Source: Thermoproteota archaeon
Lineage (GTDB): Archaea > Korarchaeota > Korarchaeia > Korarchaeales > Korarchaeaceae
Reading direction: 5' to 3'
Assembly (NCBI GenBank): GCA_027491915.1
Contig: JAOZGC010000002.1
Span: 379,344 to 443,343 of the forward strand
Length of the DNA: 64,000 nucleotides
Shown: one piece after another, positions 13,427 through 48,487 of the stretch
How positions within the stretch are numbered: the first letter of the stretch is position 1
How the letters are laid out: each line of letters begins with the position of its first letter
Program-made: the position numbers and the translations under genes
Notes under the pieces: generated by a model
The model's input: the letters and a program-made list of their open reading frames with translations, nothing else
Databases searched by the model: none
Told to the model about the DNA's origin: nothing

Positions 13427-13461
13427 CAACATTTTTATAGCCACCGCCCGACGCCGCGACC

Positions 13462-25517: not shown

Positions 25518-25521
25518 CCTC

Positions 25522-26598
25522 ATGAGGCTGGTGGTGGAGAAGAGGACCGTCGCGTCCAGGAGGTTCTCGGTCGCCGTCAGGGTTGCTTCGGTGGCCGCGG
25601 CCCTGCTCACCATGGCCGCCGTCTTCGCCGGGTACGGCCTGGACCCGGTAAGGGTGTACGGCGGCATATTCTCCAAGGCCTTCGGAACGCCGGTGGGACT
25701 CGCCGAGACCGTGGTCAGGATGATCCCCCTCCTGCTGATAAGCTCCGGGCTCGCCCTGGTGTTCAAGGCCCAGTTCTGGAATATAGGGGCGGAGGGCCAG
25801 TTCCTGGCCGGGGCCATGGCCGCCTTCGTGGTGGCCACCTCCCTCCCGGACCTGCCCCCCCACCTGCTGATCCCCCTCATGTTCGCCGTCGGGTTCCTGG
25901 CCGGGGCCGCCTGGGGGGTGCCGACCGCCTTCATGAGGGCGAAGCTGAACGTCAACGAGGTGATAACCACCCTGATGTTCACCTACATACTCGACTGGAT
26001 CTTCCAGTGGACCCTCTCCGGCCCGTGGAAGGCCAGGGAGACCGTCGGCCAGCTGACCTACTCGGGTTTCAGGCACTCCGTCGTCATAACCGAGAACGCC
26101 TGGCTCCCCCTGATAGAGGGGACCAGGGTCCACTGGCCCACCCTCGCCCTGGCCGTGGCGGCCGCGATCGCGGCCTACCTCGTCGTCTCCAGGACCACCT
26201 TCGGGTACGAGCTCAGGGTCGTCGGGGACAACCCGGAGGCGGCCCGGGCGGCCGGAATAAGCTACTCCAAGGTGGTCTCGGTGGGCATGATCATAAGCGG
26301 CGGGCTGGCGGGCATGGCGGGGGTCGGGGAACTGGCGGGGATCCAGCACAGGTTCACGGCCGAGTTCCTGACGGGCTACGGGTACGATGCGATAATAACG
26401 GCTTGGCTCGGTGGGATGAACCCCGTCGGGCTCCTGGTGGCCAACTTCCTCTTGGGGGGCCTGGTGGTCGGGGGGGACTACCTCCAGATCAAGTTCAGGC
26501 TCCCGGGGGGGATGATCGACATGTTCAACGGCACGATCCTGTTCTTCGTGCTGGCCTTCGAGTTCCTCCTCAGGTACAGGATCAGGATAAGGAGGTGA
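25522..26598 (+). CDS. ABC transporter permease (BPD_transp_2 type)
   Basis: 358 aa and multi-TM. Follows the ATPase after 4 nt. Confidence 0.85.
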   Translation: MRLVVEKRTVASRRFSVAVRVASVAAALLTMAAVFAGYGLDPVRVYGGIFSKAFGTPVGLAETVVRMIPLLLISSGLALVFKAQFWNIGAEGQFLAGAMAAFVVATSLPDLPPHLLIPLMFAVGFLAGAAWGVPTAFMRAKLNVNEVITTLMFTYILDWIFQWTLSGPWKARETVGQLTYSGFRHSVVITENAWLPLIEGTRVHWPTLALAVAAAIAAYLVVSRTTFGYELRVVGDNPEAARAAGISYSKVVSVGMIISGGLAGMAGVGELAGIQHRFTAEFLTGYGYDAIITAWLGGMNPVGLLVANFLLGGLVVGGDYLQIKFRLPGGMIDMFNGTILFFVLAFEFLLRYRIRIRR

Positions 26599-26606
26599 CC
26601 CCGTAG

Positions 26607-27542
26607 ATGCAGGCGGAGCTGATATCCAGCGTCCTCTGGATCGGGTTGAGGTCCGGCACCCCCCTCCTGCTGGCCACCGTGGGGGAGATATACGCCGAGA
26701 GGTCCGGGATCCTCAACCTCGGGATAGAGGGGATGATGATAATAGGGGCCTTCACCGCCTTCGCGGTGGGCCAGGCGACCTCCAGCCCTTGGCTGGCCAT
26801 GGCGGCCGCCGCCGCGGCCGGGCTGGCCGCCTCCCTAATACACGCCTTCATCAGCATCCACCTCAGGGGGAACCAGGTGGTCTCGGGGCTGGCCCTGACC
26901 ATGTTCGGCCTCGGGCTCACCAGCGTGGCCGGCGGGACCTTCGTCGGCGCGGCCCTCCCCAGGGAGGCCAGGATAATCCCATCCCCCCTGAGCGAGGAGC
27001 TGGCCGCCATCCCCGTGATCGGGAAGGCCCTGTTCGACCAGGATCCCTTTCTGTATCTCAGCATCCTGATATCGGTCCTGCTGTGGTTCGTCCTCTACAA
27101 GACGAAGTTGGGCATAGTGATCAGGTCCGTGGGTGAGAATCCGGCCGCCGCCGACGCCCTCGGGGTCAACGTATACGCGGTCAGGTACGCGTGCACGGCG
27201 CTGGGGGGGGCCCTGGCCGGCATGGCCGGATCATACATCACCCTCTCCCTGAGGCCCGGGTGGGTAGAGAACATCACGGCCGGCAGGGGTTGGATAGCGG
27301 TGGCCCTGACGATCTTCGCCCTCTGGGACCCCCTCAAGGCCATAGCCGGGTCCTACCTATTCGGGATAGTGGAGGCCGGGACCTACAACCTCCAACCCCT
27401 GGGTTTCAGTCAGTGGCTCCTCAACGCCATACCTTACGTCCTCACGGTCGTCATACTAGTTGCGGGCGCCACCGAAACCATGAGAAAGAAGATGGGAGCT
27501 CCAGCGGCCCTCGGCGTCCCTTACGTTAGGGGAGAGAAGTGA
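26607..27542 (+). CDS. ABC transporter permease (second subunit)
   Basis: 311 aa and multi-TM. Paralogous to the preceding permease. Confidence 0.85.
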   Translation: MQAELISSVLWIGLRSGTPLLLATVGEIYAERSGILNLGIEGMMIIGAFTAFAVGQATSSPWLAMAAAAAAGLAASLIHAFISIHLRGNQVVSGLALTMFGLGLTSVAGGTFVGAALPREARIIPSPLSEELAAIPVIGKALFDQDPFLYLSILISVLLWFVLYKTKLGIVIRSVGENPAAADALGVNVYAVRYACTALGGALAGMAGSYITLSLRPGWVENITAGRGWIAVALTIFALWDPLKAIAGSYLFGIVEAGTYNLQPLGFSQWLLNAIPYVLTVVILVAGATETMRKKMGAPAALGVPYVRGEK

Positions 27543-27705
27543 TGGACGAGACGGGACCGCTCCTCAAAGATCCTCAAGTATAGTTCACGCATTTGACTCA
27601 GACGATCTCCGCCCCGCGACCTGACGCCGAGCCCTGAGTGTCACCTTGAGAAACGTTTATTGGTATTCCCCTCCCGGGAGAATACCCCATCGAGGGTGAG
27701 ACAGA

Positions 27706-29001
27706 ATGAGCTCGACCCAGTGGGCGGCGATAGCCCTCATCCTGTTCGTGGTGGGGGTGGGCATAGGCTACATGGCGGCCCCCAAGGGGGCCGCGCCGGC
27801 CCAGTGCCCCCCGTGCGAGTGCCCGCCGTGCCAGCCGCAGGCCGCCCCCCAGTATAAGGCGGCTTTCATATACATAGGGCCCATAGGGGACTACGGCTGG
27901 ACCCACGAGCACGAGATGGCCAGGAGGGCCGTCCAGGAGATGTTCCCGTGGCTCAACACCACCTACATAGAGTCCGTCCCCCCCGACCAGGCCGAGGGCA
28001 AGATGGAGGAGCTGATCTCCGAGGGGTACAACATCATATTCACCACCAGCTTCGACTACATGGATCCGACCATAAACGAGGCCAAGAAGCACTCTGACGT
28101 GTTCTTCTTCCACTGCTCCGGATACAAGCGCTGGAAGAACTCCGGCACCTACTTCGCGGACTTCTATCAGCTCTACTACCTAAACGGCCTCATGGCCGGC
28201 GCCCTGACCCGCACCGGGAAGGTCGGCTACGTGGCCGCCTTCACCATACCGGAGGTCGTCAGGCACATCAACGCCTTCGCCATAGGGGTCCACGAGGTCA
28301 ACCCGGACGCCGTGGTCCTGGTGAGGGAGATAGGGGCCTGGTACAACCCGGACCTGGCGGCGGACGCGGCCGAGTCCCTGATCTCAGAGGGAGTCGACGT
28401 CCTGGCCTTCACCGAGGACTCCCCGACCGTACTGCAGGTGGCCCAGCAGCACCACGACAGGGGTGAGAGGGTGCTGGCCTTCGGCCACTACAGCCCGATG
28501 AAGCAGTACGGGCCGGACGTGTGCGTCAGCGGTCAGATAGCGCACTGGGACAGGATACTGGAGGACATACTGGCCAAGATATACTCCGGAGTCTACACCA
28601 CCCAGAACCTGGAGAACGTCGACTACTGGTGGAAGCTAAAGGAGGGCGCCGTCGAGCTCGGGTGCGCCGACAACGAGCCCATCAACCCGATATTCATAGA
28701 CGAGCTCAGGCAGGTCCACGTCAACGAGACCGTCCTCCTTCCCAACGGGACGGTGCTGGAGAACCCCGACGTCTACAAGCTGGTCATGGCCAGGATGATA
28801 CAGATGGGCGTGGTCTGGCACCCGGACACCGGCACCTACACCTTCACCAACGACGAGTGCTTCGACCCGTTCACCGGTCCACTCTACGACAACCAGGGTC
28901 ACCTGATGGCCCCGGAGGGTCAGAGGCTCGGGCACGACGCCCTGTGGACCATGCAGTGGTGGTACCAGAACGTGCAGGGACCGCCCCTAGGGGGAGGATG
29001 A
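27706..29001 (+). CDS. BMP-family (PnrA-like) substrate-binding protein for nucleosides/nucleobases, N-terminally anchored, with a CPPCECPPC linker
   Basis: AAFIYIGPIGDYGWTHEHE, GYNIIFTTSFDY, VGYVAAFTIPEVVRHINAFAIG and REIGAWYNPD are typical of basic-membrane-protein-family binding proteins. N-terminal TM segment WAAIALILFVVGVGIGYM. Confidence 0.85.
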   Translation: MSSTQWAAIALILFVVGVGIGYMAAPKGAAPAQCPPCECPPCQPQAAPQYKAAFIYIGPIGDYGWTHEHEMARRAVQEMFPWLNTTYIESVPPDQAEGKMEELISEGYNIIFTTSFDYMDPTINEAKKHSDVFFFHCSGYKRWKNSGTYFADFYQLYYLNGLMAGALTRTGKVGYVAAFTIPEVVRHINAFAIGVHEVNPDAVVLVREIGAWYNPDLAADAAESLISEGVDVLAFTEDSPTVLQVAQQHHDRGERVLAFGHYSPMKQYGPDVCVSGQIAHWDRILEDILAKIYSGVYTTQNLENVDYWWKLKEGAVELGCADNEPINPIFIDELRQVHVNETVLLPNGTVLENPDVYKLVMARMIQMGVVWHPDTGTYTFTNDECFDPFTGPLYDNQGHLMAPEGQRLGHDALWTMQWWYQNVQGPPLGGG

Positions 29002-29196: not shown

Positions 29197-29694
29197 ATGC
29201 CTGCTGTCGATAGGATACTCGTGGTCGATCCCGAGAGGTGCACGGGGTGCAGGATCTGCGAGGCGGCCTGCTCCTACCAGCACTACGGGGAGTTCAACCC
29301 CCGCAGGTCCTACATCACCGTGCTGAAGAGGGAGTCCGACGGTCTCTTCGTCCCCATGGTCTGCCAGCACTGCGCCAAGCCGCTCTGCGTGGAGGCCTGC
29401 CCGACGGGGGCCCTCTACCAGTATGGGAGCGCCGTCTTCCTGGACAAGTCGAAGTGCATAGAGTGCAGGCAGTGCGTCAACGCCTGCCCCTTCGGGGGGG
29501 TGGGCATAGACCCCGTCACCTTGCAGGTGGTGAAGTGCGACCTCTGCGGCGGGGACCCCCAGTGCGCCAGGAGGTGCCCCACCGGGGCGATATCCTACGT
29601 CAGGGCCGACCTGGTAGGGTACCGCAGGAAGCTCGAGGGGGCCGAGCGCCTGTCGAGGCTGACGAGCCTGATAGTCCCCTCGGGAGGTGGGTGA
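29197..29694 (+). CDS. Four-cluster [4Fe-4S] ferredoxin-type electron-transfer subunit (DmsB/NrfC/AorA-like), partner of AOR-2
   Basis: 16 Cys in four motifs: CTGCRICEAAC, CQHCAKPLCVEACP, CIECRQCVNACP, CDLCGGDPQCARRCP. The stop overlaps the AOR-2 GTG by 8 nt. Confidence 0.9.
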   Translation: MPAVDRILVVDPERCTGCRICEAACSYQHYGEFNPRRSYITVLKRESDGLFVPMVCQHCAKPLCVEACPTGALYQYGSAVFLDKSKCIECRQCVNACPFGGVGIDPVTLQVVKCDLCGGDPQCARRCPTGAISYVRADLVGYRRKLEGAERLSRLTSLIVPSGGG

Positions 29695-31597
29695 GTTGAG
29701 GTACGGGGGGTACGCCGGCAGGTACATCAGGGTCGACCTGAGCAGCGGCTCCATCGGGGTGCTGGAGACCCCGGAGTCCCTGGCCAGGGACTACGTGGGC
29801 GGCCTGGGTTTCGGGGTGAGGCTGCTCTGGGACGAGGTGGACGAGCGGACCGACCCCCTGGGGCCGGACAACAGGCTGGTTATAGCCACCGGCCCGCTCA
29901 CTGGAACCCTCTTCCCGGCCGCCGGGCGCTACCAGATGGCGGCCAAGTCCCCCCTAACCGGCATCTGGGGGCAGTCCAACTCCGGCGGGTTCTTCGGCCC
30001 GGAGCTGAAGTTCGCGGGGTACGACATGGTGGTGATCCAGGGCAGGTCCGAGAGGCCTGTCTACCTGGTGATAGACGACGACGAGGTCAGGCTGGCCGAC
30101 GCGTCCCACGTCTGGGGCAAGACCACCTTCGAGACCACGGACATCGTCAGGGAGGACCTGGGAGACGAGACCTTCAAGGTGATGGCCATAGGTCCGGCGG
30201 GCGAGAACCTGGTCAGATTCGCGGCCGTCATAAACGACGCCGGCAACGCCGGCGGCAGGACCGGCATGGGGGCCGTGATGGGATCCAAGAAGCTCAAGGC
30301 CATAGCAGTCAGGGGGTCGAGGGGGGTCAGGGTGGCCGACGACGGGGCCTTCATGGAGGTGGTGGACGAGGCCTACGAGAAGCTCCAGGTCGAGTGGGGG
30401 GAGGCGGTTAGGGAGACCCTGACTAAGTACGGCACCCCAAACCTGGTGGAGGCCATAAACGCCATAGGCAGGATGCCCGTCAAGAACCACTGGACGGGGT
30501 ACTGGGAGAGGGCCGACGAGATAGGCGGGGTGGCCATAAGGGAGAGGTACAGGGTCAAGCAGGGGTCCTGCTACGGATGCCTGGTCCAGTGCAAGTACTA
30601 CGTGGAGGTCAGGGAGGGACCCTTCGCCGGCAGGTACAAGGGACCCGAGTACGAGGCCATAGTCTCGTTCGGCTCGTCCCTCCTGATAGACGACCTGCCG
30701 GCCATATTCCGCGCCAACCACCTGGCCGACGCCCTCGGGATGGACTCAATATCCCTGGGGATGACCATAGCCTGGGCCATGGAGTCCTGGGAGAGGGGCC
30801 TCCTGACGGCGGAGGACACCGGCGGTCTGGACCTCTCGTGGGGGAACGCGGACTCGGTGATCGAGCTCATCGAGAAGACGGCCTACAGGGAGGGATTCGG
30901 CGGCGTCATAGCGGAGGGAAGCAGGAGGGCCTCCCAGATCATAGGTAGGGGAACCGAGAAGTACGCCATGCACGTGAAGGGGCTCGAGATATCGGCGCAG
31001 GACGGCAGGGCCCACCAGAGCTCCGGCCTGACCCACGCCACCGCCGCCAGGGGGGCGGACCACCTGACCTCCCTGTCCTGCCTGGAGGAGAGGGGGTACG
31101 AGCGGGTGGCCGCCGAGAGGTACGGGGAGGACAAGGTCCGGGAGCTGACCGATCCCCTGGAGACCAAATACAAGGGGTGGCTGGTCAAGGACCTGGAGGA
31201 CCTGTACGCCATGGGGAACTCCCTCATAATCTGCTGGTACGAGGTGGGCTGGCCCCCGGTCTTCTACTTCGACGACATGGCCAGGGCCCTGGCCGCGGCC
31301 ACCGGGATGGAGGAGTACCGAGATCCAAGGGCGATAAGGATAGCCGCCGAGAGGATAGTCACCCTGAGGAGGATGTTCAACGTGAGGGAGGGACTCAGGA
31401 GGAAGGACGACACCCTGCCCGAGAGGTTCCTCAGGGAGCCCATGCCGACGGGCCCGGCCAGGGGGAACGTGTGCAGGCTGGACGAGATGCTCGACGACTA
31501 CTACAGGGCCAGGGGCTGCGATCCGGAGACCGGCGTGCCCACCGACGAAACCCTGAGGAGGCTGGGGCTGGGAGACCTGGCCGGGAGGTGGAGGTGA
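29687..31597 (+). CDS. AOR-family tungstoenzyme, paralogue 2
   Basis: YGGYAGRYIRVDLSSG, GRTGMGAVMGSKKLKA, SCYGCLVQCK (CX2CX3C), GPEYEA, DDTLPERFLREPMPTGPARG. GTG 29687 (alternative TTG 29696). Confidence 0.93.
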   Translation: MGELRYGGYAGRYIRVDLSSGSIGVLETPESLARDYVGGLGFGVRLLWDEVDERTDPLGPDNRLVIATGPLTGTLFPAAGRYQMAAKSPLTGIWGQSNSGGFFGPELKFAGYDMVVIQGRSERPVYLVIDDDEVRLADASHVWGKTTFETTDIVREDLGDETFKVMAIGPAGENLVRFAAVINDAGNAGGRTGMGAVMGSKKLKAIAVRGSRGVRVADDGAFMEVVDEAYEKLQVEWGEAVRETLTKYGTPNLVEAINAIGRMPVKNHWTGYWERADEIGGVAIRERYRVKQGSCYGCLVQCKYYVEVREGPFAGRYKGPEYEAIVSFGSSLLIDDLPAIFRANHLADALGMDSISLGMTIAWAMESWERGLLTAEDTGGLDLSWGNADSVIELIEKTAYREGFGGVIAEGSRRASQIIGRGTEKYAMHVKGLEISAQDGRAHQSSGLTHATAARGADHLTSLSCLEERGYERVAAERYGEDKVRELTDPLETKYKGWLVKDLEDLYAMGNSLIICWYEVGWPPVFYFDDMARALAAATGMEEYRDPRAIRIAAERIVTLRRMFNVREGLRRKDDTLPERFLREPMPTGPARGNVCRLDEMLDDYYRARGCDPETGVPTDETLRRLGLGDLAGRWR

Positions 31598-31602
31598 TCC
31601 GG

Positions 31603-32787
31603 ATGGCCGATCTGTCGGTCGAGGTGGCCGGGATAAGGTTCAGGAACCCCGTCCTGACGGCGGCCGGGCCGCCGAGCCAGAACGGCTCGGCCCTCCTGGC
31701 GGCGGCCAGGGCGGGGGCCGGCGGGCTGGTGGCCAAGACCATCAGCGTGGAGCCCGCGAAGGTCCCCAGGCCGACCATGGCCGCGCTGGACAGGGGGATG
31801 ACCGACTTCTCCATCTACTACGCCCTTGGGGGCAGGATCGTCCGGAGGACCAGGACGAAGATGTTCACCCCGAGGGGTCTGCTGAACATAGAGCTGTGGT
31901 CCGACCTGCCCTACCAGAGGTGGCTGGACGTGGAGTACAAGGTGGCCAAGAGCTCCGGCCTCCCACTGATAGCCAGCGTAGGCTACACCGCCGACGACCT
32001 GAGGTTCCTCGGCCCCAAGGTCCAGGAGGCCGGGGTAGACGGCATAGAGTTCTCCCTCCACTACGTCGGCATAGACTACAAGCCCCTCCTGGAGATAGCC
32101 AAGGCACTGAGGGAGTCGGTGGACGTCCCGATATTCGCCAAGCTCAGCCCCCACATCCTGGGACTCACGGAGTTCGCCAAGGAGCTGGAGAGGATAGGCG
32201 TGGACGGGATAGTGGCCGTGAACTCCCTCGGCCCCACCCTGATGATAGACATAGAGACCGGGAGACCGCTCCTCGGCGGGAAGATGGGTGAGGGGTGGCT
32301 CTCCGGCCCGGCGATAAAGCCGCTGGCCCTCAGGGTGGTGGCGGAGGTGGCCAAGAACACGAGCCTCCCCGTCATAGGGGTCGGGGGAGTGACCTCCGGG
32401 GCGGACGCCATAGAGTTCTTCATGGCTGGGGCGTCGGCGGTGGAGATATGCACGGGCGCCATACTGGAGGGCCCGGGTATATACGGGCGGGTGGCCAGGG
32501 AGATAGGGGAGTGGCTCGACGAGCACGGGTACGACTCGGTGGAGGACGTGCGGGGGATGGCGCTTAAGTACCTGCCGGAGGACTACCAGTACGAGGTAAG
32601 GAACCCGGGGGTAGATCCGGACCTCTGCACGGCCTGCGGCCTGTGCGAGGAGGTCTGCCGCTACGACGCGATAAAGGTGGTCGAGGTGGACGGAAGGAAG
32701 ACCGCCTCCGTCAACCAGTACGCCTGCTACGGCTGCGGGCTGTGCACGACCGTCTGCCCCACGAGGGCGGTCAGGTTCGTGGACTGA
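31603..32787 (+). CDS. Dihydroorotate/dihydropyrimidine dehydrogenase-family flavoprotein with C-terminal 2x[4Fe-4S] ferredoxin domain (PreA-like), divergent active-site loop
   Basis: IFAKLSP, GIVAVNSLGPT, GWLSGPAIKPLALR and PVIGVGGVTSGADAIEFFMAGASAVEICTG form the DHO_dh barrel. The C-terminus has CTACGLCEEVC and CYGCGLCTTVCP. Where NLSCPN/H is expected, the sequence reads EFSLHYVG. Confidence 0.8.
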   Translation: MADLSVEVAGIRFRNPVLTAAGPPSQNGSALLAAARAGAGGLVAKTISVEPAKVPRPTMAALDRGMTDFSIYYALGGRIVRRTRTKMFTPRGLLNIELWSDLPYQRWLDVEYKVAKSSGLPLIASVGYTADDLRFLGPKVQEAGVDGIEFSLHYVGIDYKPLLEIAKALRESVDVPIFAKLSPHILGLTEFAKELERIGVDGIVAVNSLGPTLMIDIETGRPLLGGKMGEGWLSGPAIKPLALRVVAEVAKNTSLPVIGVGGVTSGADAIEFFMAGASAVEICTGAILEGPGIYGRVAREIGEWLDEHGYDSVEDVRGMALKYLPEDYQYEVRNPGVDPDLCTACGLCEEVCRYDAIKVVEVDGRKTASVNQYACYGCGLCTTVCPTRAVRFVD

Positions 32788-32823
32788 TGGTTTGGATAGG
32801 TCGGTTCGGGTGGTGTGGTGAGT

Positions 32824-33327
32824 ATGGCGGAGCAGAGGGTCCTTCTGGTCAGCCCTGAGCTCTGCACCGGGTGCAGGCTCTGCGAGCTGGCCTGCTCCTT
32901 CCAACACTTCCGGGAGTTCGCCCCCTCCAGGTCCAGGATAACCGTGGTCCGCAAGGAGGAGGAGGGCCTGGACATACCCGTGGTGTGTCTCCAGTGCGAG
33001 GACGCCCCCTGCGTGGCGGCCTGCCCGACGGGCGCCCTCTGGAAGGAAGATGAGAGCGGCCTCGTGGCCTACGACTTCGACAGGTGCATAGGGTGCAAGG
33101 TCTGCATAACCGCCTGCCCCTTCGGAGGGATAGGGTGGGATCCGAAGAGCGGCAGCGTCATAAAGTGCGACTGGTGCGGCGGGGATCCCCAGTGCGCCAG
33201 GATATGCCCCACCGGGGCGATAAAGTGGGTGAGGGCCGAGGAGGCCGACGCGACCAAGAGGGACAGGGTGGCCAGGAGGTTCGAGGAGGTATCTCGACTC
33301 ATAACGGCCGCCAGGGGGGGTGTCTGA
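32824..33327 (+). CDS. Four-cluster [4Fe-4S] ferredoxin-type subunit, partner of AOR-3 (paralogue of 29197..29694)
   Basis: CTGCRLCELAC, CLQCEDAPCVAACP, CIGCKVCITACP, CDWCGGDPQCARICP. ATG 32824 is preferred (GTG alternatives at 32815 and 32818). The stop overlaps the AOR-3 GTG by 8 nt. Confidence 0.9.
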   Translation: MAEQRVLLVSPELCTGCRLCELACSFQHFREFAPSRSRITVVRKEEEGLDIPVVCLQCEDAPCVAACPTGALWKEDESGLVAYDFDRCIGCKVCITACPFGGIGWDPKSGSVIKCDWCGGDPQCARICPTGAIKWVRAEEADATKRDRVARRFEEVSRLITAARGGV

Positions 33328-35266
33328 GCTGTCCCGCCCCTACGGGGGATACGCCGGTAGGATACTGAGGGTCGACCTGTCCTCCGGCAGGGTGTCTACC
33401 CAGGACCTCCCCAGGGACTGGGCCAGGCTCTTCATAGGGGGGAGCGGCCTGGCGGCCAGGATCCTCTGGGAGGAGGTCGGCCCGGGGACGGATCCGCTGG
33501 GCCCTGACAACAGGCTCATAGTGGCGACGGGGCCCGTTACCGGAACCGCCTGGCACACCTCGGGCAGGTCCGTCATGGTCTCCAAGTCCCCCCTCACCGG
33601 AATATGGGCGGAGTCCCACTTCGGGGGCCACTTCGGACCGGAGCTGAAGTACGCCGGGTTCGACGCCCTGGTGGTGAGCGGTAGATCCCCCAGGCCCGTT
33701 TACCTCTGGGTTCACGACGGGACCGCGGAGATAAGGGACGCGTCCGACATGTGGGGCATGGACACCTACGAGACCACCGCGGCCGTCAGGGACGACGTGG
33801 GATACCCGGCGGCCAAGGTCCTCTCCATAGGCCCCGCCGGGGAGAACCTGGTCAAGTACGCGGCCGTGATCACCAACTCCCACGACGCCGCCGGCCGGAC
33901 CGGCATGGGGGCCGTGATGGGATCCAAGAAGCTCAAGGCCGTGGCGGTCAGGGGGTTCGGGTCGGTCAGGGTGGCTGACCCGGACAGGTTCTACGAGCTC
34001 GCCCTGGAGGCCAGGGACAGGGTCCTGGGCAGCGACCAGGCCATGGAGCTCAGGAGGTACGGCACCGCCATGCTGGTCGAGGTGAAGCAGGCCATCGGAG
34101 AGCTCCCGACCTACAACCACAGGAGCGGCGTCTTCGAGGGGTTCGAGACCATAGGGAGCCACCACATAAGGAAGAACTACTGGGTGGCGACCAAGGCGTG
34201 CTTCGCGTGCAGCCTGGCCTGCAAGAAGAAGAACCTCGTCAGGGGAGGGGAGTTCCGCGGCCTGTTCTCGGGGGGACCGGAGTACGAGGGTCTCTACGCC
34301 TTCGGGAGCAACTGCGGCGTGGACTACTTCCCGGCCGTGTTGAAGATGAACTGGCTCTGCAACAGATACGGCATAGACGTGATATCGGCCGGGGTGTCCA
34401 TGTCGTTCCTGATGGAGCTCAGGGAGAGGGGGATCATCGGGGAAGACCTGCTGGGCGGCGTGGACCTCAGGTGGGGGAACCACGAGGCCATGATAGAGGC
34501 CCTGGAGCTGATAGCCAGGAGGGAGGGGGTCGGAGACCTCCTGGCAGAGGGGGTCCGGGAGATGGCCCGCCGGATAGGGGGAGAGGCGGAGAGGTACGCG
34601 ATGCACGTCAAGGGGCTCGAGATATCCGGTCAGGATGGGAGGACCCACAGGTCCGCCGGGCTGACCCACGCGGTGGCCGCCAGGGGGGCGGACCACATGA
34701 GGGGACTCGTGACGGTCGACCAGCTCGCCTACAGGGACGTGGCTGCCGAGAGGTTCGGCGAGGACAAGGCCGACAGGGTGGTGGACGGATACTCCGAGGA
34801 CTACAAGGCCCTGGCCGTCAAGATGCACGAGGACGCCTACGCCGTCAGGGACTCCCTCATAGTCTGCTGGTACTCGGTGGGCTGGCCTCCCCTTTTCTGG
34901 GTGGACGACTTCTCCAGGGTCCTGAGCGCCGTCACCGGGGAGGAGTCGTGGTCCGACGTCGGGGAGGTCTGGCTGGCCGGGGAGAGGATAGTGAACCTGA
35001 AGAGGGCCTTCAACGTCAGGGAGGGGATAACCAGGAGGGACGACACCCTGCCCGAGAGGTTCACGAGGGAGCCCATGCCGGAGGGCCCGGGCAGGGGCCA
35101 GGTGGTTGACCTGGAGAGGATGCTGGACGAGTACTACGAGCTGAGGGGATGGGACTTGGAGACCGGCTTCCCCACCAGGGAGAGGCTGGAGGAGCTCGGC
35201 CTGTCTGACGTGGCCGAGGAGCTGGCCGGCGCGGGGAAGCTGGCCCGGGGAGGAGGGGGGTCCTAG
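33320..35266 (+). CDS. AOR-family tungstoenzyme, paralogue 3
   Basis: YGGYAGRILRVDLSSG, GRTGMGAVMGSKKLKA, ACFACSLACK (CX2CX3C), GPEYEG, DDTLPERFTREPMPEGPGRG. Confidence 0.93.
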   Translation: MSELSRPYGGYAGRILRVDLSSGRVSTQDLPRDWARLFIGGSGLAARILWEEVGPGTDPLGPDNRLIVATGPVTGTAWHTSGRSVMVSKSPLTGIWAESHFGGHFGPELKYAGFDALVVSGRSPRPVYLWVHDGTAEIRDASDMWGMDTYETTAAVRDDVGYPAAKVLSIGPAGENLVKYAAVITNSHDAAGRTGMGAVMGSKKLKAVAVRGFGSVRVADPDRFYELALEARDRVLGSDQAMELRRYGTAMLVEVKQAIGELPTYNHRSGVFEGFETIGSHHIRKNYWVATKACFACSLACKKKNLVRGGEFRGLFSGGPEYEGLYAFGSNCGVDYFPAVLKMNWLCNRYGIDVISAGVSMSFLMELRERGIIGEDLLGGVDLRWGNHEAMIEALELIARREGVGDLLAEGVREMARRIGGEAERYAMHVKGLEISGQDGRTHRSAGLTHAVAARGADHMRGLVTVDQLAYRDVAAERFGEDKADRVVDGYSEDYKALAVKMHEDAYAVRDSLIVCWYSVGWPPLFWVDDFSRVLSAVTGEESWSDVGEVWLAGERIVNLKRAFNVREGITRRDDTLPERFTREPMPEGPGRGQVVDLERMLDEYYELRGWDLETGFPTRERLEELGLSDVAEELAGAGKLARGGGGS

Positions 35267-35282
35267 AACGACGGCGGACCTG

Positions 35283-36626
35283 GTGATCAAGGGCGCCACC
35301 CTGCTGACGGACTCCCTCATGCTGGGGGGGGCCGGGGTGGCGGTCGAGGCCGGAAGGGTGACGGCGGTCGCCCTGGACCCCCACCTCCCCGACGCCTCCG
35401 AGGTCGTGGACGCCGGCGGCCAGCTCCTGATGCCGGGCGGGGTGGACTGCCACGCCCACGTGTACGACCCCGACTACACCCACAGGGAGGACTGGGCCTC
35501 CGGCTCCGCCGCCGCGGCGGCCGGCGGGGTGACCACCCTGATAGACATGCCCCTGGTCCTGACCGTCATGCCGGAGCTGGCCAGGGAGAAGATCCAGGTC
35601 GGGGAGAGGGACTCCATGGTGGACTTCTCCCTCCACGCCGGCATGATGGAGACCGAGGAGCACCTACGCAGGATGCCCGAGCTCGTCGAGATGGGAATAA
35701 GGTCGTTCAAGGCCTTCACCACGGCCCCCTTCAGGGTGGGCTACGACTACATAGAGAGGCTGGCCGCCAGGGCCAGGGACCTGGGAGGGGTGGTCACGGT
35801 CCACTCGGAGGACGACGCCGTGATAAGGGAGGCCGAGAGGGAGGTCAGGGAGGTGAAGGGCAGGAGGGACCCCCTGGCCCACCACGACTCCAGGCCCCCC
35901 GAGGCCGAGGCGGCAGCCGTGGCCAGGCTGGTGGCGGCGGCCAGGGCGACCGGGGGGAGGATCCACGTGGCCCACATGACCACGGCCCAGGGGGTGGGGG
36001 AGGTGGCGGCCGCCAAGTCCGAGGGGCTGAGGGTCACCGCCGAGACCTGCCTCCACTACCTGGTGTTCACCAAGGCCGACGTGGAGAGGTGGGGCCCGTA
36101 CCTGAAGATGACCCCTCCCCTCAGGACTTCCTACCACGTCGAGGCCCTCTGGAGGGGGATAGCCTCCGGGGCCGTGGACGCCGTGGCCACGGACCACGCC
36201 CCGGGGACCAGGGAGGAGAAGGAGGTCGGCTGGGAGGACATATGGAGGGCCTGGGGCGGGATACCCGGGGTGGAGACCCTGGTCCCCGTCACCCTCAGCG
36301 AGGGGGTCTGGCGCAGGGGGCTGGACCCCAGGAGGGTGTGCAGGGTGCTGTGCCGGGGGCCGGCGGAGGCCTTCGGCCTCTACCCGAGGAAGGGTTCCCT
36401 GGCCCCCGGGTCGGACGCCGACCTGGTGCTGTTCGATCGGAAGGTTGAGAGGGTCGTCCGGGCGGCGGACCTCCACTACAAGGTGGGGTGGACCCCCTAC
36501 GACGGGATCCTGGTCAGGGGCTGGCCCTCCAGGGTCTACGTGAGGGGGGAGCTGGTCGCCCTCGAGGGGGAGCCCGTCGGCCGACGGGGGCACGGGAGGT
36601 TCGTGCCCATGGGGGAGGTGTCGTGA
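35283..36626 (+). CDS. Cyclic amidohydrolase (dihydroorotase/allantoinase/dihydropyrimidinase-hydantoinase superfamily)
   Basis: Metal ligand contexts: GGVDCHAHV (HxH), SFKAF (candidate carbamylated Lys), VHSED, HVAHMTT, ATDHAPGTREEK, SDADLVLFD. GTG start. Confidence 0.85.
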   Translation: MIKGATLLTDSLMLGGAGVAVEAGRVTAVALDPHLPDASEVVDAGGQLLMPGGVDCHAHVYDPDYTHREDWASGSAAAAAGGVTTLIDMPLVLTVMPELAREKIQVGERDSMVDFSLHAGMMETEEHLRRMPELVEMGIRSFKAFTTAPFRVGYDYIERLAARARDLGGVVTVHSEDDAVIREAEREVREVKGRRDPLAHHDSRPPEAEAAAVARLVAAARATGGRIHVAHMTTAQGVGEVAAAKSEGLRVTAETCLHYLVFTKADVERWGPYLKMTPPLRTSYHVEALWRGIASGAVDAVATDHAPGTREEKEVGWEDIWRAWGGIPGVETLVPVTLSEGVWRRGLDPRRVCRVLCRGPAEAFGLYPRKGSLAPGSDADLVLFDRKVERVVRAADLHYKVGWTPYDGILVRGWPSRVYVRGELVALEGEPVGRRGHGRFVPMGEVS

Positions 36627-38533
36627 TGGGATTCAAGGGTTGGGCCGGCAAGGTGATCCACGTCGACCTCGGCTCCGGGAGCGTATCGGTGGAGCCTCTG
36701 GACGGATCGCTGGCCGCCGAATACCTGGGAGGGACGGGTTTCGCGGCCAGGTGGCTCTACGACGGGGTCGGTCCTGAGACCGACCCCCTGGGCCCCGACA
36801 ACCTGCTCATATTCGCCGTCGGCGCCCTGACCGGGACGGCCTTCCCGCAGGCGAGCCGGCACGTCATAGCCGCCAAGTCCCCCCTGACCGACATATACGG
36901 CGAGTCCCACGCCGCCGGCCACTGGGGGGCCGAGCTGAAGTTCGCGGGATACGACGCCATCGTGTTCAGGGGGAGGTCGCCGAGGCCGGTCTACCTCTGG
37001 GTGGAGGACGGGTCGATAGAGCTCAGGGACGCCTCCGACCTGTGGGGCAGGACCACCTACGAGACCGAGGCCATGATAAGGGAGGAGGCGGGAGATCCCT
37101 TCGTCAAGGTCGCCTCCATAGGGCAGGCTGGGGAGAACCTGGTCAGGTTCGCGGGGATCTTCAACGACCACGGGAGGGCGGCCGCCAGATCCGGCATAGG
37201 GGCGGTGATGGGATCCAAGAGGCTCAAGGCCGTGGCGGTAAGGGGGCACGGCTCGGTGGAGCTGGCCGACCCCGACAGGTTCATGGAGCTCTTCTTCGAC
37301 TGGAGGGAGAGGATGCTCTCCCACCCCTTCACCCCGGACAGGGTCAAGTACGGCACCAACAACCTGGTGGAGCTGATGCAGGCCATAGGGAGGCTCCCGG
37401 CCTACAACCACAGGGAGGGGGTGTTCGACGAGTGGGAGAAGGTCTCCGGCGAGAGGATAACCAGGGAGTACCTGGTCGCCCCGAAGGCCGACTTCGCGTG
37501 CCTCCAGAGGTGCGGGAGGTTCGTCAGGGTCCCCTCCGGCAAGTACGCCATGGTGGGCAAGGGCCCGGAGTACGAGGGGCTGGACGCCCTCGGCCCCAAC
37601 GTGGGGAACTCCGACGTCGAGGCCCTCATATACGCCAACCACCTGTGCAACCAGTACGGCATGGACGTGATATCCGCCGGGGGCGTCATAGCCTGGGCCA
37701 TGGAGTCCTGGGAGAGGGGCCTCCTGACGGCGGAGGACACCGGAGGGCTGGAGCTCAGGTGGGGAGACGGAGACCTGATAGTGCAGCTCGTGGAGATGAT
37801 AGCCTTCAGGAAGGGTTTCGGGGACCTACTGGCAGAGGGGGTCTACAGGGCCTCCAAGAAGATCGGCAGGGGAACGGAGAAGTACGCCATGCACGTCAAG
37901 AAGATGGAGATAGCTGCGCAGGACGGCAGGGCCCAGAAGTCCATGGGCCTGGCCCACGCCACCTCCAACAGGGGGGCGGACCACCTGTACGCCTTCCCGG
38001 TGCTGGACGAGGTGGGCTTCGAGAAGGAGATAGTGGAGAGGTTCGGGGAGCGCTACCTGCCGGAGATGACCGACAGGCTCAATCCGAAGTACAAGGGGAT
38101 CATGGTGAAGGAGCTGGAGGACTTCTGCGCCGTGGTTGAGGCCGTGGGGGTGTGCAAGTACGGGACCGTCATACCCCCCGTTTTCTACTACGGAGACCTG
38201 GCCGACGCCCTGACGGCCGCCACCGGGGTGACATACGACGAGGCCAGGCTCAGGCTCATAGGGGAGAGGATAGTGAACCTGCAGAGGCTGTTCAACGTCA
38301 GGGAGGGGATAACCAGGAGGGACGACACCCTGCCCGAGAGGTTCACGAGGGAGCCCATGCCCCGGGGACCCTCCAGGGGCCAGGTGGTGGAGCTGGACCA
38401 GATGCTGGACGAGTACTACGGGCACAGGGGGTGGGATCCGGAGACCGGGATACCCACCAGGGAGAGGCTCGAGGCACTCGGGCTCGGGAGGGAGGCGGAG
38501 GAGCTGGCGGCCGCCGGCTACCCCGTCAAGTGA
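36626..38533 (+). CDS. AOR-family tungstoenzyme, paralogue 4 (first Cys of the cluster motif replaced by Asp)
   Basis: GWAGKVIHVDLGSGS, ARSGIGAVMGSKRLKA, ADFACLQRCG (DX2CX3C), GPEYEG, DDTLPERFTREPMPRGPSRG. The ATG overlaps the amidohydrolase TGA by 1 nt (GTGATGG). Confidence 0.93.
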   Translation: MGFKGWAGKVIHVDLGSGSVSVEPLDGSLAAEYLGGTGFAARWLYDGVGPETDPLGPDNLLIFAVGALTGTAFPQASRHVIAAKSPLTDIYGESHAAGHWGAELKFAGYDAIVFRGRSPRPVYLWVEDGSIELRDASDLWGRTTYETEAMIREEAGDPFVKVASIGQAGENLVRFAGIFNDHGRAAARSGIGAVMGSKRLKAVAVRGHGSVELADPDRFMELFFDWRERMLSHPFTPDRVKYGTNNLVELMQAIGRLPAYNHREGVFDEWEKVSGERITREYLVAPKADFACLQRCGRFVRVPSGKYAMVGKGPEYEGLDALGPNVGNSDVEALIYANHLCNQYGMDVISAGGVIAWAMESWERGLLTAEDTGGLELRWGDGDLIVQLVEMIAFRKGFGDLLAEGVYRASKKIGRGTEKYAMHVKKMEIAAQDGRAQKSMGLAHATSNRGADHLYAFPVLDEVGFEKEIVERFGERYLPEMTDRLNPKYKGIMVKELEDFCAVVEAVGVCKYGTVIPPVFYYGDLADALTAATGVTYDEARLRLIGERIVNLQRLFNVREGITRRDDTLPERFTREPMPRGPSRGQVVELDQMLDEYYGHRGWDPETGIPTRERLEALGLGREAEELAAAGYPVK

Positions 38534-38536: not shown

Positions 38537-38575
38537 GTATATAGGGAAATTTTTATGAATTCTTTCCCTATATAC
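38537..38575. terminator. Perfect 13-bp inverted repeat (GTATATAGGGAAA - 13 nt - TTTCCCTATATAC) in the most A/T-rich spot of the window. Candidate operon terminator hairpin and/or operator flanking a TATA-like loop (AAATTTTTATGAA).
   Basis: Read directly. The left arm is 38537-38549, the loop 38550-38562 and the right arm 38563-38575. It lies between the AOR-4 stop (38533) and the GTG at 38581. Confidence 0.55.
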
Positions 38576-38580: not shown

Positions 38581-39963
38581 GTGCTTCCCAGGGAGACGCT
38601 GGTCAGGGTGCTGAGGGACCAGCAAGAGGGGGTACCTCCCCCCCTCGTGAGGAGGGATATCTCGATACCCACCCGCCCACCCCTCAGGAGGGCCGTCTCC
38701 GTGGTGGGGCCCAGGAGGGCCGGGAAGACCTACTCGATGTTCCAGCTCATGAGGGACCTGATGTCCGCCGGGGTCGCCAGGGAGAGGCTCCTCTACCTGG
38801 ACCTCGAGGACTACAGGCTGGCCGGAGCCGACCAGCGTGACCTCGGGAGGATAATAGACCTCCACGCGGAGATTTACCCTGAGGCCTCTCGGGGGGAGAG
38901 GTGGATCTTTCTGGACGAGGTTCAGGCGATCCTCGGGTGGGAGGGGGTCGTCAGGACCCTCCTGGACCTGGGGAGATCGTGGGTCTTCGTCACGGGTTCC
39001 TCCTCCAGGCTCCTGTCCAGGGAGGTGGCCACCCAGCTCAGGGGTAGGACCCTGACGTTCGAGCTGTTCCCCTTCTCGTTCAGGGAGTTCTTGAGGGCCA
39101 GGGGGGCCGGGGACCTGGTCAACGCCGCCGCCGGGGCGTCGAGCTCCGAGGAGGCGCGCCTGAAATCGCTCCTCCGGGAGTACCTCTCGCGGGGCGGGTA
39201 CCCGGAGGCGGCGCTGAACCCCGGACTCGGGGAGAGGATACTCAGGGAGATATGGGAGGTGACCGTTTCCAGGGACCTGATAGACAGGTGGGGGATAAGG
39301 AACGTCAGGGCCCTGAGGCTCCTGGTGGGGGCGGTCAGGAGGTCGAGGGAGTTCTCGGTGCACGGGTTCTACAGGTACCTGAAGTCGATGGGCCTCAGGG
39401 TCGGCAAGGACACCCTCTACAACTACCTGGAGTACCTGAGGGACGCCATGATCGTCTTCCCCCTGCGGAGGTACTCCAGGTCCGTCAGGGAGATCGAGGC
39501 CACGTCTCCAAAGCTCTACCTGGTGGACAACGGGCTCTACCTCGGGGAGGTCGGGGAGGGGGAACTCATGGAGAACCTGGCGTTCCTGGAGCTGAGGCGG
39601 AGGGGGGCGGTGGAGGGAGAGAGGCTCTTCTACTGGAGGTCCAGGTCGGGATCCGGGGAGGTGGACTTCCTGATTGCGGACTCCCGACTCCGCCCGACGA
39701 GGCTCGTCCAGGTGACCCGAGAGGTCAGGTGGGACGACCCCAGGCAGGTCAGGAGGGAGCTTGGCTCCCTCGTCAGGGCGGCCCGGGAGACCGGGTGCCG
39801 GAGCCTTTGGGTGGTCACCTGGGATCAGGAGGGAGCCGAGGTCTTCGAGGGCGCGGAGGTCGAGCTGGTCCCCATGTGGAGGTGGGCGCTCGGGTTCCCC
39901 TCGGGGTTCTGGGAGGGGGTATCCCCCAGATTCCCGGCGGGCGCTCACCCGCCGGGGGAGTAG
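38581..39963 (+). CDS. AAA-type ATPase (AAA_14 + DUF4143 architecture)
   Basis: Walker A GPRRAGKT, Walker B WIFLDEVQ. C-terminal region with EVDFLI, typical of this archaeal ATPase family. Confidence 0.8.
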   Translation: MLPRETLVRVLRDQQEGVPPPLVRRDISIPTRPPLRRAVSVVGPRRAGKTYSMFQLMRDLMSAGVARERLLYLDLEDYRLAGADQRDLGRIIDLHAEIYPEASRGERWIFLDEVQAILGWEGVVRTLLDLGRSWVFVTGSSSRLLSREVATQLRGRTLTFELFPFSFREFLRARGAGDLVNAAAGASSSEEARLKSLLREYLSRGGYPEAALNPGLGERILREIWEVTVSRDLIDRWGIRNVRALRLLVGAVRRSREFSVHGFYRYLKSMGLRVGKDTLYNYLEYLRDAMIVFPLRRYSRSVREIEATSPKLYLVDNGLYLGEVGEGELMENLAFLELRRRGAVEGERLFYWRSRSGSGEVDFLIADSRLRPTRLVQVTREVRWDDPRQVRRELGSLVRAARETGCRSLWVVTWDQEGAEVFEGAEVELVPMWRWALGFPSGFWEGVSPRFPAGAHPPGE

Positions 39964-48479: not shown

Positions 48480-48487
48480 TTATAAAC
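48480..48487 (-). promoter_or_regulatory. TATA-like box (GTTTATAA on the - strand) overlapping the MFS stop codon, 23-30 nt upstream of the HMG-CoA reductase ATG
   Basis: Read directly: ..ctcttataaaccc.. Confidence 0.45.

Follow-up and report, generated by a model that had tools for sequence, protein, structure and literature searches.

A 64,000-nt stretch of DNA from a member of the Korarchaeaceae (contig JAOZGC010000002.1, positions 379,344 to 443,343 of the forward strand; G+C content ~68%), here called the window, carries at 29197-38533 an operon of seven open reading frames (ORFs) on the plus strand. They encode, in this order, a small iron-sulfur protein (FeS-1), a protein of the aldehyde:ferredoxin oxidoreductase (AOR) family (AOR-2), a flavoprotein, a second iron-sulfur protein (FeS-2), a second AOR-family protein (AOR-3), a cyclic amidohydrolase and a third AOR-family protein (AOR-4). 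On balance we lean towards the view that the products of this operon carry out the central redox and ring-opening steps of an anaerobic, reductive pathway for degrading a purine-type N-heterocycle, in which a tungsten wire would lead to a reductase resembling UacX and the AORs would be specialised for the pathway. The evidence lies in the conserved linkage of these genes, in the subfamilies to which their products belong and in a changed active site of the linked AORs.

Conserved linkage of the seven genes

Genes and domains were called from the ORF list and from matches to Pfam and NCBIfam families. All seven proteins had such matches, which bear out the gene order and functions given in an initial annotation of this DNA. 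The genes are tightly packed. Both FeS/AOR pairs overlap by 8 nt (GTGGGTGA at 29687-29694 and GTGTCTGA at 33320-33327), the flavoprotein gene follows AOR-2 after 5 nt (31598-31602), and amidohydrolase and AOR-4 genes meet in TGATG at 36624-36628 (-1 nt); these junctions lie where they had been placed initially. The gaps between flavoprotein and FeS-2 (27 nt) and between AOR-3 and amidohydrolase (16 nt) are also short, and this anatomy points to complexes.

Contigs from one genome per species were searched with a profile of the flavoprotein family, and 80 loci were retrieved. These were annotated by tblastn with the window proteins and by all-against-all clustering of their ORFs, and recurrent neighbours were identified via Pfam and NCBIfam. 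The linkage is conserved in relatives: the upstream importer described below and all seven genes are found in the same order in two other loci (L002 and L003, flavoprotein 81% identical), and parts of the order recur in more than 20 loci of other phyla. This conservation of gene order excludes a chance co-location and shows that the functional linkage is real. The AOR stop codon lies 0-55 nt from the flavoprotein start in nine of the 11 loci measured, and FeS, AOR and flavoprotein genes follow each other at such distances in Caldarchaeales-like archaea, Nitrososphaeria, Bathyarchaeia, Hermod-, Prometh- and Thorarchaeota. The same order with a 2.6-kb insert is present in L004, and in a Heimdallarchaeote (L030) the FeS-AOR pair is close by and is encoded on the opposite strand. 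PreA-like proteins that are more distant also have flanking FeS-AOR pairs, namely in Hadarchaeum, in Anaerolineae, in a deltaproteobacterium and in one metagenome-assembled genome (MAG) each of Methanobacteriota and Bacillota.

The other neighbours form a recognisable set. SsnA-like genes occur in 46 of the 80 loci, HyuA-like genes in 24, genes for proteins like ornithine carbamoyltransferase (OTC; of the knotted N-acetylornithine carbamoyltransferase (AOTCase)/YgeW-like type) in 23 and carbamate kinase genes in 13; YgeY-type M20 hydrolases, threonine-synthase-like PALP enzymes and ThiS-like proteins recur as well. By family assignment, the non-AOR genes of related loci are the gene set of the reductive urate/2,8-dioxopurine pathway described in 2025. 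In that pathway urate is converted to 2,8-dioxopurine by XdhD/DOPDH, and the ring is dearomatised by YgfK or, in C. difficile, by UacX (PMC12507026; bioRxiv 10.1101/2025.04.24.650524). SsnA and HyuA then open the rings, ureido groups are cleaved by YgeW (with YqeA, which yields ATP) or UacY, and by YgeY, and YgeX follows (PMC12507026; bioRxiv 10.1101/2025.04.24.650524). UacX resembles PydAc, with FMN and a ferredoxin domain, and lacks an FAD domain (PMC12507026), and its physiological electron donor is unknown (PMC12507026; bioRxiv 10.1101/2025.04.24.650524). Conversion of yanthine required YgfK or UacX together with SsnA, a requirement that the authors propose to reflect unfavourable thermodynamics of the reduction by YgfK on its own (PMC12507026; bioRxiv 10.1101/2025.04.24.650524).

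Across the 80 loci an AOR gene is present in 26 and a gene for the molybdenum subunit of xanthine dehydrogenase (XDH) in 12, mostly bacterial; both occur together in two. Among loci whose flavoprotein has the short active-site loop described below, 16 archaeal ones carry an AOR and four bacterial ones an XDH, and the two are never found together; thus no XDH homologue was detected in any of these 16 archaeal loci.

The importer upstream of the operon is of the BMP/PnrA type. It had been noted initially as a nucleoside/base-type importer, and it probably takes up nucleosides or bases, judging from its family. The importer is possibly transcribed separately, since the 195-nt spacer in front of FeS-1 has a T-run and a TATA-like element rich in AT. 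The FeS-AOR operons of L002, L003 and L004 are preceded by the same four genes; L018, L046 and L058 encode homologues of the binding protein and permeases, and L050 one of the binding protein only. At the other end of the operon the perfect 13-bp hairpin reported initially was confirmed (arm GTATATAGGGAAA at 38537-38549, complement at 38563-38575). This repeat is AT-rich in a genome of 68% G+C, has TATATA in both arms and is followed by a gene for an AAA_14/DUF4143 ATPase (38581-39963). It marks the end of the unit and could be a terminator, a promoter element of the next gene or a regulator site. A scan of the window for sigma-70 promoters and intrinsic terminators, which is unsuited to an archaeon, gave nothing useful.

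Further genes were seen in individual loci. Four loci of Thor- and Promethearchaeota (L022, L024, L025 and L028) have genes for an M24 creatinase/prolidase-type peptidase and a PfkB-family kinase on the opposite strand, between the flavoprotein and HyuA-like genes, and a ThiS-like gene precedes the HyuA-like gene there; these genes, conserved in the four loci, hint at nucleoside-linked or extra hydrolytic steps. Loci of Bacillota and Leptolinea (L059 and L072) contain genes for ATP-dependent hydantoinase A/B and an octopine-dehydrogenase-like protein beside FeS-AOR, PreA-like and SsnA-like genes, and L059 also one for an ADP-forming acyl-CoA synthetase. The Hadarchaeum cluster of SsnA-like, PreA-like, FeS-AOR and HyuA-like genes (L050) is neighboured by a gene for a molybdopterin subunit of the formate-dehydrogenase/DMSO-reductase family (12486-14630, minus strand) with its own FeS gene.

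Features of the window that are discussed in the text
Feature	Position	Strand	Evidence
AOR-1, canonical Tyr/Cys AOR	11224-13071	+	clusters with PfAOR and AmWorL
ThiS-like gene after AOR-1	13133-13423	+	family match
Radical SAM/SPASM gene after AOR-1	13462-14751	+	"tungsten cofactor oxidoreductase radical SAM maturase", 284 bits (cutoff 380)
Knotted carbamoyltransferase, AOTCase/YgeW-like	21037-22080	-	OTCace_N and OTCace
BMP/PnrA-type ABC importer	23871-29001	+	ATPase 23871-25517, permeases 25522-26598 and 26607-27542, binding protein 27706-29001
FeS-1, WorS/AorA-type subunit, 4x[4Fe-4S]	29197-29694	+	165 aa; Fer4 families, 16 Cys
AOR-2, AOR-family large subunit (WorL)	29687-31597	+	AFOR_N (E 1e-84), AFOR_C (E 1e-130)
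UacX-like flavoprotein, predicted ring reductase	31603-32787	+	DHO_dh (FMN TIM barrel) and C-terminal ferredoxin domain, 2x[4Fe-4S]
FeS-2, second WorS/AorA-type subunit, 4x[4Fe-4S]	32815-33327	+	16 Cys; alternative ATG at 32824
AOR-3, second specialised WorL orthogroup	33320-35266	+	AFOR domains, PDB similarity, Gln/Asp signature
HyuA/dihydropyrimidinase/allantoinase-type cyclic amidohydrolase, predicted ring opening	35283-36626	+	Amidohydro_1
AOR-4, third specialised WorL orthogroup	36626-38533	+	AFOR domains, PDB similarity, ADFACLQRCGR motif, Gln/Asp signature
Perfect 13-bp inverted repeat, 13-nt loop	38537-38575	.	complementary arms
YgeY-like M20 hydrolase	44730-45854	-	NCBIfam YgeY, 303 bits (cutoff 321)

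Subfamilies of the reductase, the hydrolase, the wire subunits and the AORs

The flavoprotein has no FAD/NAD(P)H module; its FMN-binding barrel (PF01180, with the FMN site) is joined to one C-terminal ferredoxin domain with two cluster motifs, which is the domain composition of UacX. Family annotation of the operon found neither a PreT-type pyridine-nucleotide oxidoreductase gene nor a PyrK-like gene. In a profile alignment the family matches Lys574, Asn609, Lys709 and Asn736 of pig dihydropyrimidine dehydrogenase (DPD), Asn668 is replaced by Ser, and in place of the loop with the catalytic Cys671 stands a short FS(L/T)HYVGxDxKP, of which Ser151, His153 and Tyr154 are invariant. The sole invariant Cys in the barrel aligns to a non-catalytic Cys of pig DPD within VLQVCSA (~Cys816 by our own count). 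The short loop, E(F/L)S(T/L)HY, is common to all loci with a flavoprotein more than ~40% identical, and both the DPD catalytic Cys and Asn668 are missing from this entire subfamily. The NxSCPN-type loop of dihydroorotate dehydrogenases (DHODs), with Cys in class 1 and Ser in class 2, is absent as well. The best NCBIfam match of the flavoprotein is PreA, at 198 bits against a cutoff of 335; the archaeal PyrD equivalog gives 125 bits (cutoff 330) and the pyrD subfamily 1 model 189 bits (cutoff 270). Since these cutoffs are missed and the protein belongs to the short-loop subfamily, it was filed as UacX-like. The loci with its nearest relatives are from Thermoproteota/Nitrososphaerota, and a 65% identical homologue is from Aigarchaeota.

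For comparisons with UacX, P0196, which C. perfringens encodes at the corresponding place of its cluster, stood in for the C. difficile protein (Q181U4); C. difficile was not among the homologues listed for the Clostridium UacX-like protein. P0196 is 46% identical to the window flavoprotein over the full length, apart from a 26-residue insertion in the latter, and has the loop ELSTHYVG. It is encoded with XdhC, a sigma-54 regulator, PALP, M20, Amidohydro_3 and SsnA-like proteins, a xanthine/uracil permease, and HyuA-like and XdhD-like proteins around the DHO_dh-Fer4 gene itself, which agrees with the uricolytic arrangement in C. difficile (PMC12507026). A further short-loop member, in Clostridium sp. 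UBA701, is flanked by genes for SsnA (551 bits), YgeY (632 bits), a YgeW-like OTC and a HyuA-like hydrolase. From its sequence and these contexts we classify the window flavoprotein as UacX-like rather than as PreA/PydA or PyrD.

At least four further PreA-like subfamilies with other loops (NxSCP, PTxCPH...MGEILEAMFPG, ELPIG and ECVxY; L057-L081, L046, L050 and L058-L060) were also encountered. They adjoin SsnA-like hydrolases and XDH or FeS-AOR genes, which suggests a wider set of heterocycle-reducing modules.

The closest solved structure to the amidohydrolase is the L-hydantoinase 1gkr. The motifs HAH (57-59), FKAF (142), VHSE (173), VAHM (229) and TDHAP (303) are present, which we take to be the ligand motifs of a binuclear metal site (HxH, carboxylated Lys, His, His and Asp). 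Equivalog cutoffs are missed throughout (allantoinase 330.5 vs 357.85, D-hydantoinase 309 vs 393, dihydroorotase PRK02382 330 vs 452) and only the broad pyrC_multi domain model is passed. The protein is 30% identical to the one at the HyuA position of C. perfringens, and the adjacency of HyuA-like, (FeS) and AOR-4 genes also occurs in L025, L028, L058, L083-L087, L091 and L096.

Two more genes of the window resemble pathway genes. A carbamoyltransferase is encoded 7 kb upstream of the operon; it scores 302 bits with the N-acetylornithine carbamoyltransferase model (cutoff 288) and 181-186 bits with YgeW models. It is the orthologue, 54% identical, of OTCb from an OTC-OTC-carbamate kinase-SsnA-like-PreA-like cluster of Thermogladius, and copies 76-78% identical lie in metagenome clusters of the order OTC-x-SsnA-like-HyuA-like-FeS-AOR-4 (L083-L085). 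By this kinship it is a probable enzyme for ureido-group phosphorolysis in the same pathway. The YgeY-like hydrolase, encoded 6 kb downstream, is a possible enzyme for ureido/carbamoyl cleavage, and its membership in the pathway is uncertain. In the close relative L002 a YgeY gene (328 bits, cutoff 321) follows AOR-4 at a distance of ~2.7 kb and an SsnA gene (553 bits, cutoff 444) lies directly upstream of the importer, a place that is taken by an SsnA-type homologue in L003.

At that position the window has an ORF (22404-23759, plus strand) for a predicted membrane protein of 451 aa that has no Pfam or NCBIfam match. It was considered as SsnA and ruled out, being an unrelated protein; ssnA in L002 and L003 is on the opposite strand. 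The recurrent PALP gene was likewise rejected as YgeX. The PALP enzymes of the archaeal clusters and of the uricolytic cluster of Clostridium sp. are threonine-synthase-like, with up to 368 bits vs 303 (L007, 14968-16227; L010, 11236-12519; L043, 1760-3004), and the pathway may end differently from that of E. coli.

FeS-1 and FeS-2 (165-170 aa) contain 16 Cys each, arranged in four CxxCx(2-5)CxxxC motifs, and have ferredoxin motifs only. With the two motifs in the flavoprotein tail, these are the cluster numbers given initially. A PDB search with FeS-2 as query gave as best relatives WorS of Acetomicrobium mobile (9mqx_E, 144 bits), to which FeS-2 aligns over residues 2-151 of 152, and AorA (8c0z_C, 129 bits). 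In both window proteins the C-terminal tail that follows the last Cys motif is charged. WorS/AorA proteins are ~150-190 aa long, have four [4Fe-4S] motifs and are encoded directly upstream of WorL, and FeS-1 and FeS-2 agree in all three points; on these features we class them as wire subunits of the WorS type. WorS and AorA form Fe-S nanowires that join WorL catalytic subunits to a flavoprotein module (PMC12318220, PMC6365974).

AOR-2, AOR-3 and AOR-4 match AFOR_N and AFOR_C over their full length (E 1e-79 to 1e-139). They were classed as members of the tungsten AOR family, in which tungsten or molybdenum is not readable from the sequence. Their scores with AOR of Pyrococcus furiosus (PfAOR) and WorL of A. 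mobile (AmWorL) are 449-497 bits (AOR-2 with PfAOR 485 bits) and those with WOR5 and BamB ~240-260 bits. A BamB-like ring-reducing role of the AORs was rejected because the similarity to BamB is about half of that to PfAOR and AmWorL. The initial annotation had raised the phylogenetic placement of the three paralogues; in a neighbour-joining tree, which has only two characterised outgroups, they fall into three orthogroups that jointly exclude PfAOR, AmWorL and AOR-1 of the window. Each orthogroup is monophyletic, crosses phyla and has a fixed genomic position, and those of AOR-2 and AOR-3 are sisters. Genes of the AOR-2 group, which come from Caldarchaeales-like, Bathyarchaeia, Thor-, Hermod- and Promethearchaeota loci, immediately precede the flavoprotein gene, and AOR-3 types follow an FeS gene downstream of it. 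AOR-4 types come after the HyuA-like gene, usually with an FeS gene of their own, which AOR-4 of the window lacks.

All linked AORs keep Glu311 and His444 (AmWorL numbering; Glu313 and His448 in PfAOR) within PEYE and RGxxH motifs. Tyr423 is stated to be conserved in all tungsten enzymes of known structure (PMC12318220). In all linked AORs, that is in AOR-2, AOR-3, AOR-4 and all their orthologues, it is replaced by Gln, and Cys443 by Asp; the resulting Gln/Asp signature is found in the motifs E(I/A)(S/A)(A/G)QD(G/P)R and RGADH. The four Cys ligands of the [4Fe-4S] cluster (CxxCxxxC ... C) are present in AOR-2 and AOR-3. In AOR-4 the first of them is Asp (ADFACLQRCGR or SDWSC; window, L002, L007, L025 and L028) or Gly (L046 and L050), and bacterial relatives of AOR-4 retain the Cys. 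Archaeal AOR-4 may thus have a cluster that is ligated by Asp or altered in another way.

Linkage was also analysed from the side of the AORs, in a metagenome scan seeded with AOR-4 orthologues, which gave 80 loci with 87 AOR genes. The Gln/Asp pair is present in 26 of the 87, all of which keep Glu and His. A PreA-like, SsnA-like or HyuA-like gene lies within 10 kb of 16 of these 26, compared to one of the 61 other AORs (Fisher p = 7e-10, a value that overstates the evidence because contigs are not phylogenetically independent; the direction is still clear). Canonical Tyr/Cys AORs were never linked (0/37). Ten Gln/Asp AORs are unlinked, of which four are on contigs of at most 5.3 kb and one lies beside carbamate kinase and OTC genes.

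Elsewhere in the window AOR-1 and the ThiS-like and radical SAM/SPASM genes behind it (11224-14751) seem to be a housekeeping AOR and its maturation genes, apart from the operon. An HMG-CoA reductase gene (47162-48457, minus strand), which fits an archaeal genome, and two genes for MFS transporters (9431-10633 and 48480-49739) are apparently unrelated to the operon.

Proposed mechanism and alternative explanations

The initial annotation had offered two models. In the first one, electrons from the AORs pass through polyferredoxins into reductive cleavage of a pyrimidine-, orotate- or hydantoin-like ring. This electron path is kept in the reading that we favour, and the heterocycle is changed: a ring of purine type (2,8-dioxopurine-like) is more likely than uracil, orotate or hydantoin, because the flavoprotein lacks the Cys loop of DPD and DHOD and groups with the protein at the UacX position, and because SsnA, YgeY, YgeW-like and carbamate kinase genes are neighbours in relatives. 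The UacX-like protein, having no NAD(P)H module of its own, would dearomatise the ring. The HyuA-like amidohydrolase would open the reduced ring and so pull the unfavourable reduction forward, as the SsnA hydrolase would in relatives, and the YgeW-like carbamoyltransferase and YgeY-like hydrolase would strip off the ureido groups, with a gain of ATP through carbamate kinase in relatives. The two WorS-type and three AOR-family subunits would form an Fe-S wire, as in AorABC and WorABC(SL)3, that docks on the flavoprotein at its ferredoxin domain. The ring reduction would therefore be paid for directly, and at very low potential, by two-electron oxidations at the tungsten sites. The three AORs would be enzymes specialised for the pathway rather than housekeeping aldehyde oxidoreductases.

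Several observations weigh against this reading. The docking of WorS on the flavoprotein is proposed from gene order and by analogy, and the assignment as UacX-like from 46% identity to a proxy, a shared loop and gene context. The AORs are ~45% identical to broad-range aldehyde oxidoreductases and keep their catalytic Glu and His, which is compatible with ordinary aldehyde oxidation. Genes for SsnA, carbamate kinase and PALP homologues were not found within the 64-kb window. In Desulfurococcales the flavoprotein is encoded in the order OTC-OTC-carbamate kinase-hydrolase-flavoprotein-PALP with no AOR nearby, and therefore the wire is not obligatory. Five AOR-3-like Gln/Asp genes lie on contigs of 8-15 kb with no pathway gene in view. 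The limits given above for the AOR tree and for the Fisher test count in the same direction.

A more far-reaching variant, which we put forward only tentatively, is that the three Gln/Asp AORs are tungsten purine hydroxylases and dehydroxylases and stand in for XDH and 2,8-dioxopurine dehydrogenase, which are selenium-dependent molybdenum enzymes. Ring C-H positions would then be oxidised by one or two AORs, for example from hypoxanthine via xanthine to urate, and one would work in the acid-to-aldehyde direction and remove the 6-oxo group of urate, formally a reduction of an amide to an aldimine. The reductase resembling UacX would exchange electrons with the AORs along the WorS wire, and a purine could be turned into a ring-opened product redox-neutrally and in one complex. 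This variant fits because no XDH homologue is present in the window or in the archaeal loci mentioned above, because three orthogroups are fixed in position, because the active site is changed and because the conversion of urate to 2,8-dioxopurine is formally analogous to the reduction of an acid to an aldehyde.

The best surviving alternative, in our judgement an unlikely one, keeps the same wiring and takes the three AORs for ordinary broad-specificity aldehyde:ferredoxin oxidoreductases; it corresponds to the first model of the initial annotation. Fermentation aldehydes, from 2-keto-acid decarboxylation or from sugar or deoxyribose breakdown, would drive the ring reduction, and the heterocycle would be an electron sink. 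The scores of 449-497 bits with PfAOR and AmWorL and the conserved catalytic residues agree with this, and WorSL wires that feed flavoprotein end-modules have precedent (PMC12318220, PMC6365974). An acid/aldehyde couple of about -520 mV (PMC12318220) would also overcome the unfavourable reduction by YgfK or UacX. However, the linkage is confined to a clade in which substrate-contacting residues are changed, and linked AORs of the canonical Tyr/Cys type were not found. Three anciently separated orthogroups in fixed positions are hard to square with a generic electron source, which moreover the window already holds in canonical AOR-1 with its ThiS-like and radical SAM maturase genes. An enzyme that forms aldehydes does not recur in the neighbourhoods.

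Two further explanations appear improbable to us, and to a similar degree. According to one, the operon is a ferredoxin- or AOR-driven variant of the Pyd pathway, in which uracil or thymine is degraded via the dihydropyrimidine and the N-carbamoyl-beta-amino acid to beta-alanine and the AORs oxidise malonate or methylmalonate semialdehyde; this combines the two models of the initial annotation. PreA as best NCBIfam match (198 bits), the resemblance of the amidohydrolase to dihydropyrimidinases and hydantoinases, the nucleoside-type importer upstream and the lack of SsnA in the window would suit it, and a ferredoxin-dependent uracil reductase, PydAc, is known (PMC7332683). Yet the whole flavoprotein subfamily is without the catalytic Cys loop and Asn668 of DPD, it co-occurs with SsnA, YgeY and XDH in bacteria and holds the UacX position of the uricolytic cluster, and a bona fide SsnA adjoins the same operon in the closest relatives. 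No aminotransferase recurs in ~100 related loci, neither one for beta-alanine nor any other, and the second model, semialdehyde oxidation by the AORs, is left without support.

The other explanation is co-location without physical coupling, with independent ferredoxin-linked FeS-AOR pairs that merely share regulation and a flavoprotein that uses free ferredoxin. Flavoprotein clusters without AORs do exist in Desulfurococcales and clostridia, PydAc works with free ferredoxin and UacX with reduced methyl viologen. On the other side stand the gaps of 0-55 nt between AOR and flavoprotein genes in several phyla, the positional conservation specific to each AOR orthogroup, and the FeS subunits, whose type connects WorL with partner modules.

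Finally, that flavoprotein and amidohydrolase are biosynthetic PyrD and PyrC lying among AOR genes by chance is a reading that the initial annotation had considered and that is close to refuted: the DHO_dh Pfam domain and the high scores with dihydroorotase models are outweighed by the missing Cys/Ser loop, the missed PyrD (125 vs 330) and PRK02382 cutoffs, the absence of PyrK from the operon, the two or three paralogous hydrolases found in several loci, and a linkage to AOR, SsnA, YgeY and carbamate kinase genes that is kept across phyla.

Relation to known systems and significance

The urate cluster of C. difficile and C. perfringens (XdhD, UacX, SsnA, HyuA, UacY or YgeW with YqeA, YgeY and YgeX) has, like the operon, a reductase with FMN and 2x[4Fe-4S] and without an FAD/NAD(P)H module. 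The likeness extends to the adjacent HyuA-type gene, to the YgeW-like and YgeY-like genes nearby and, in related archaeal loci, to SsnA, YgeY and carbamate kinase. In contrast to this cluster, the operon is archaeal, has no XDH-family gene and has three AOR genes and two genes for four-cluster FeS subunits interleaved; SsnA, carbamate kinase and a PALP lyase are missing from the window, and the PALP enzyme of its relatives is of the threonine-synthase type.

AorABC of Aromatoleum aromaticum (8c0z) and WorABC(SL)3 of A. mobile (9mqx) are the best solved relatives of both types of subunit. They share with the operon a WorL with a 4x[4Fe-4S] small subunit encoded just upstream and a flavoprotein partner in the operon. 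Here, however, the partner is a predicted heterocycle reductase with DHOD fold, FMN and 2x[4Fe-4S], and not the FAD/NAD+ protein AorC or a bifurcating core of the BfuABC type, and there are three different WorL paralogues instead of a copied one, with the exchanges at Tyr423 and Cys443.

PydAc, PreA/PreT and mammalian DPD resemble the flavoprotein in the FMN TIM barrel with a 2x[4Fe-4S] domain, in the Lys and Asn residues that contact FMN and pyrimidine, and in an external low-potential donor. They differ from it in the Cys671 loop, Asn668 and the PreT partner; the window protein has one ferredoxin domain and stands in a purine-type context, not in a Pyd context. In class II benzoyl-CoA reductase BamB-I, too, a tungsten enzyme of the AOR family with a WorS-like partner belongs to a pathway for ring dearomatisation and not to aldehyde detoxification. 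BamB is from a distant clade (~240-260 bits vs 450-500 bits for AOR), its partner modules are different, and it reduces the ring at the tungsten site, whereas here a separate FMN protein probably does so.

The initial annotation knew of no described system with this composition, and neither the literature search nor the 2026 classification of tungsten oxidoreductases (WORs) gave a match. Searches on AOR combined with DPD, dihydropyrimidinase or SsnA returned no matching paper. The WOR classification and the Wolframiiraptor papers do not mention these neighbours of AORs, and the two reports on the reductive urate pathway (PMC12507026 and bioRxiv 10.1101/2025.04.24.650524) do not mention archaea, tungsten or AOR. 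None of the classes I-V of the WOR classification has such a partner (PMC13328260), and a physiological role is known for only five of 92 tungsten-oxidoreductase clades (PMC13328260). The Wolframiiraptor study assigned the AOR-like enzymes of Caldarchaeales to generic metabolism of aldehydes from sugars and peptides. The reductive purine pathway, reductases of the UacX/PydAc type and WorSL nanowires were thus known already; new with respect to the searched literature are the combination of these parts, the Gln/Asp clade of AORs and the occurrence of the pathway genes in archaea. Two points had escaped the initial annotation, namely that the non-AOR half of the system corresponds to the pathway published in 2025, and that the linked AORs form a clade of their own, changed in the active site.

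With this linkage the Gln/Asp AOR clade gains a metabolic context, the probable anaerobic breakdown of purine-type N-heterocycles, in Thermoproteota, Bathyarchaeia, Asgard archaea, Hadarchaeota, Chloroflexota and Bacillota. WorL-WorS together with a DHOD-fold FMN reductase is proposed as a sixth subunit architecture, and WorS/WorL become candidate electron donors of UacX-type reductases. The reductive urate pathway of 2025 would be extended to Archaea and to hot settings independent of selenium and molybdenum, and the AOR-like genes of the tungsten-dependent Caldarchaeales may in part have a function in nucleobase catabolism. Should the purine ring itself prove to be the substrate of the tungsten sites, the AOR family would have a new chemistry and its first member that acts on an N-heterocycle, and Archaea their first anaerobic route of purine degradation.

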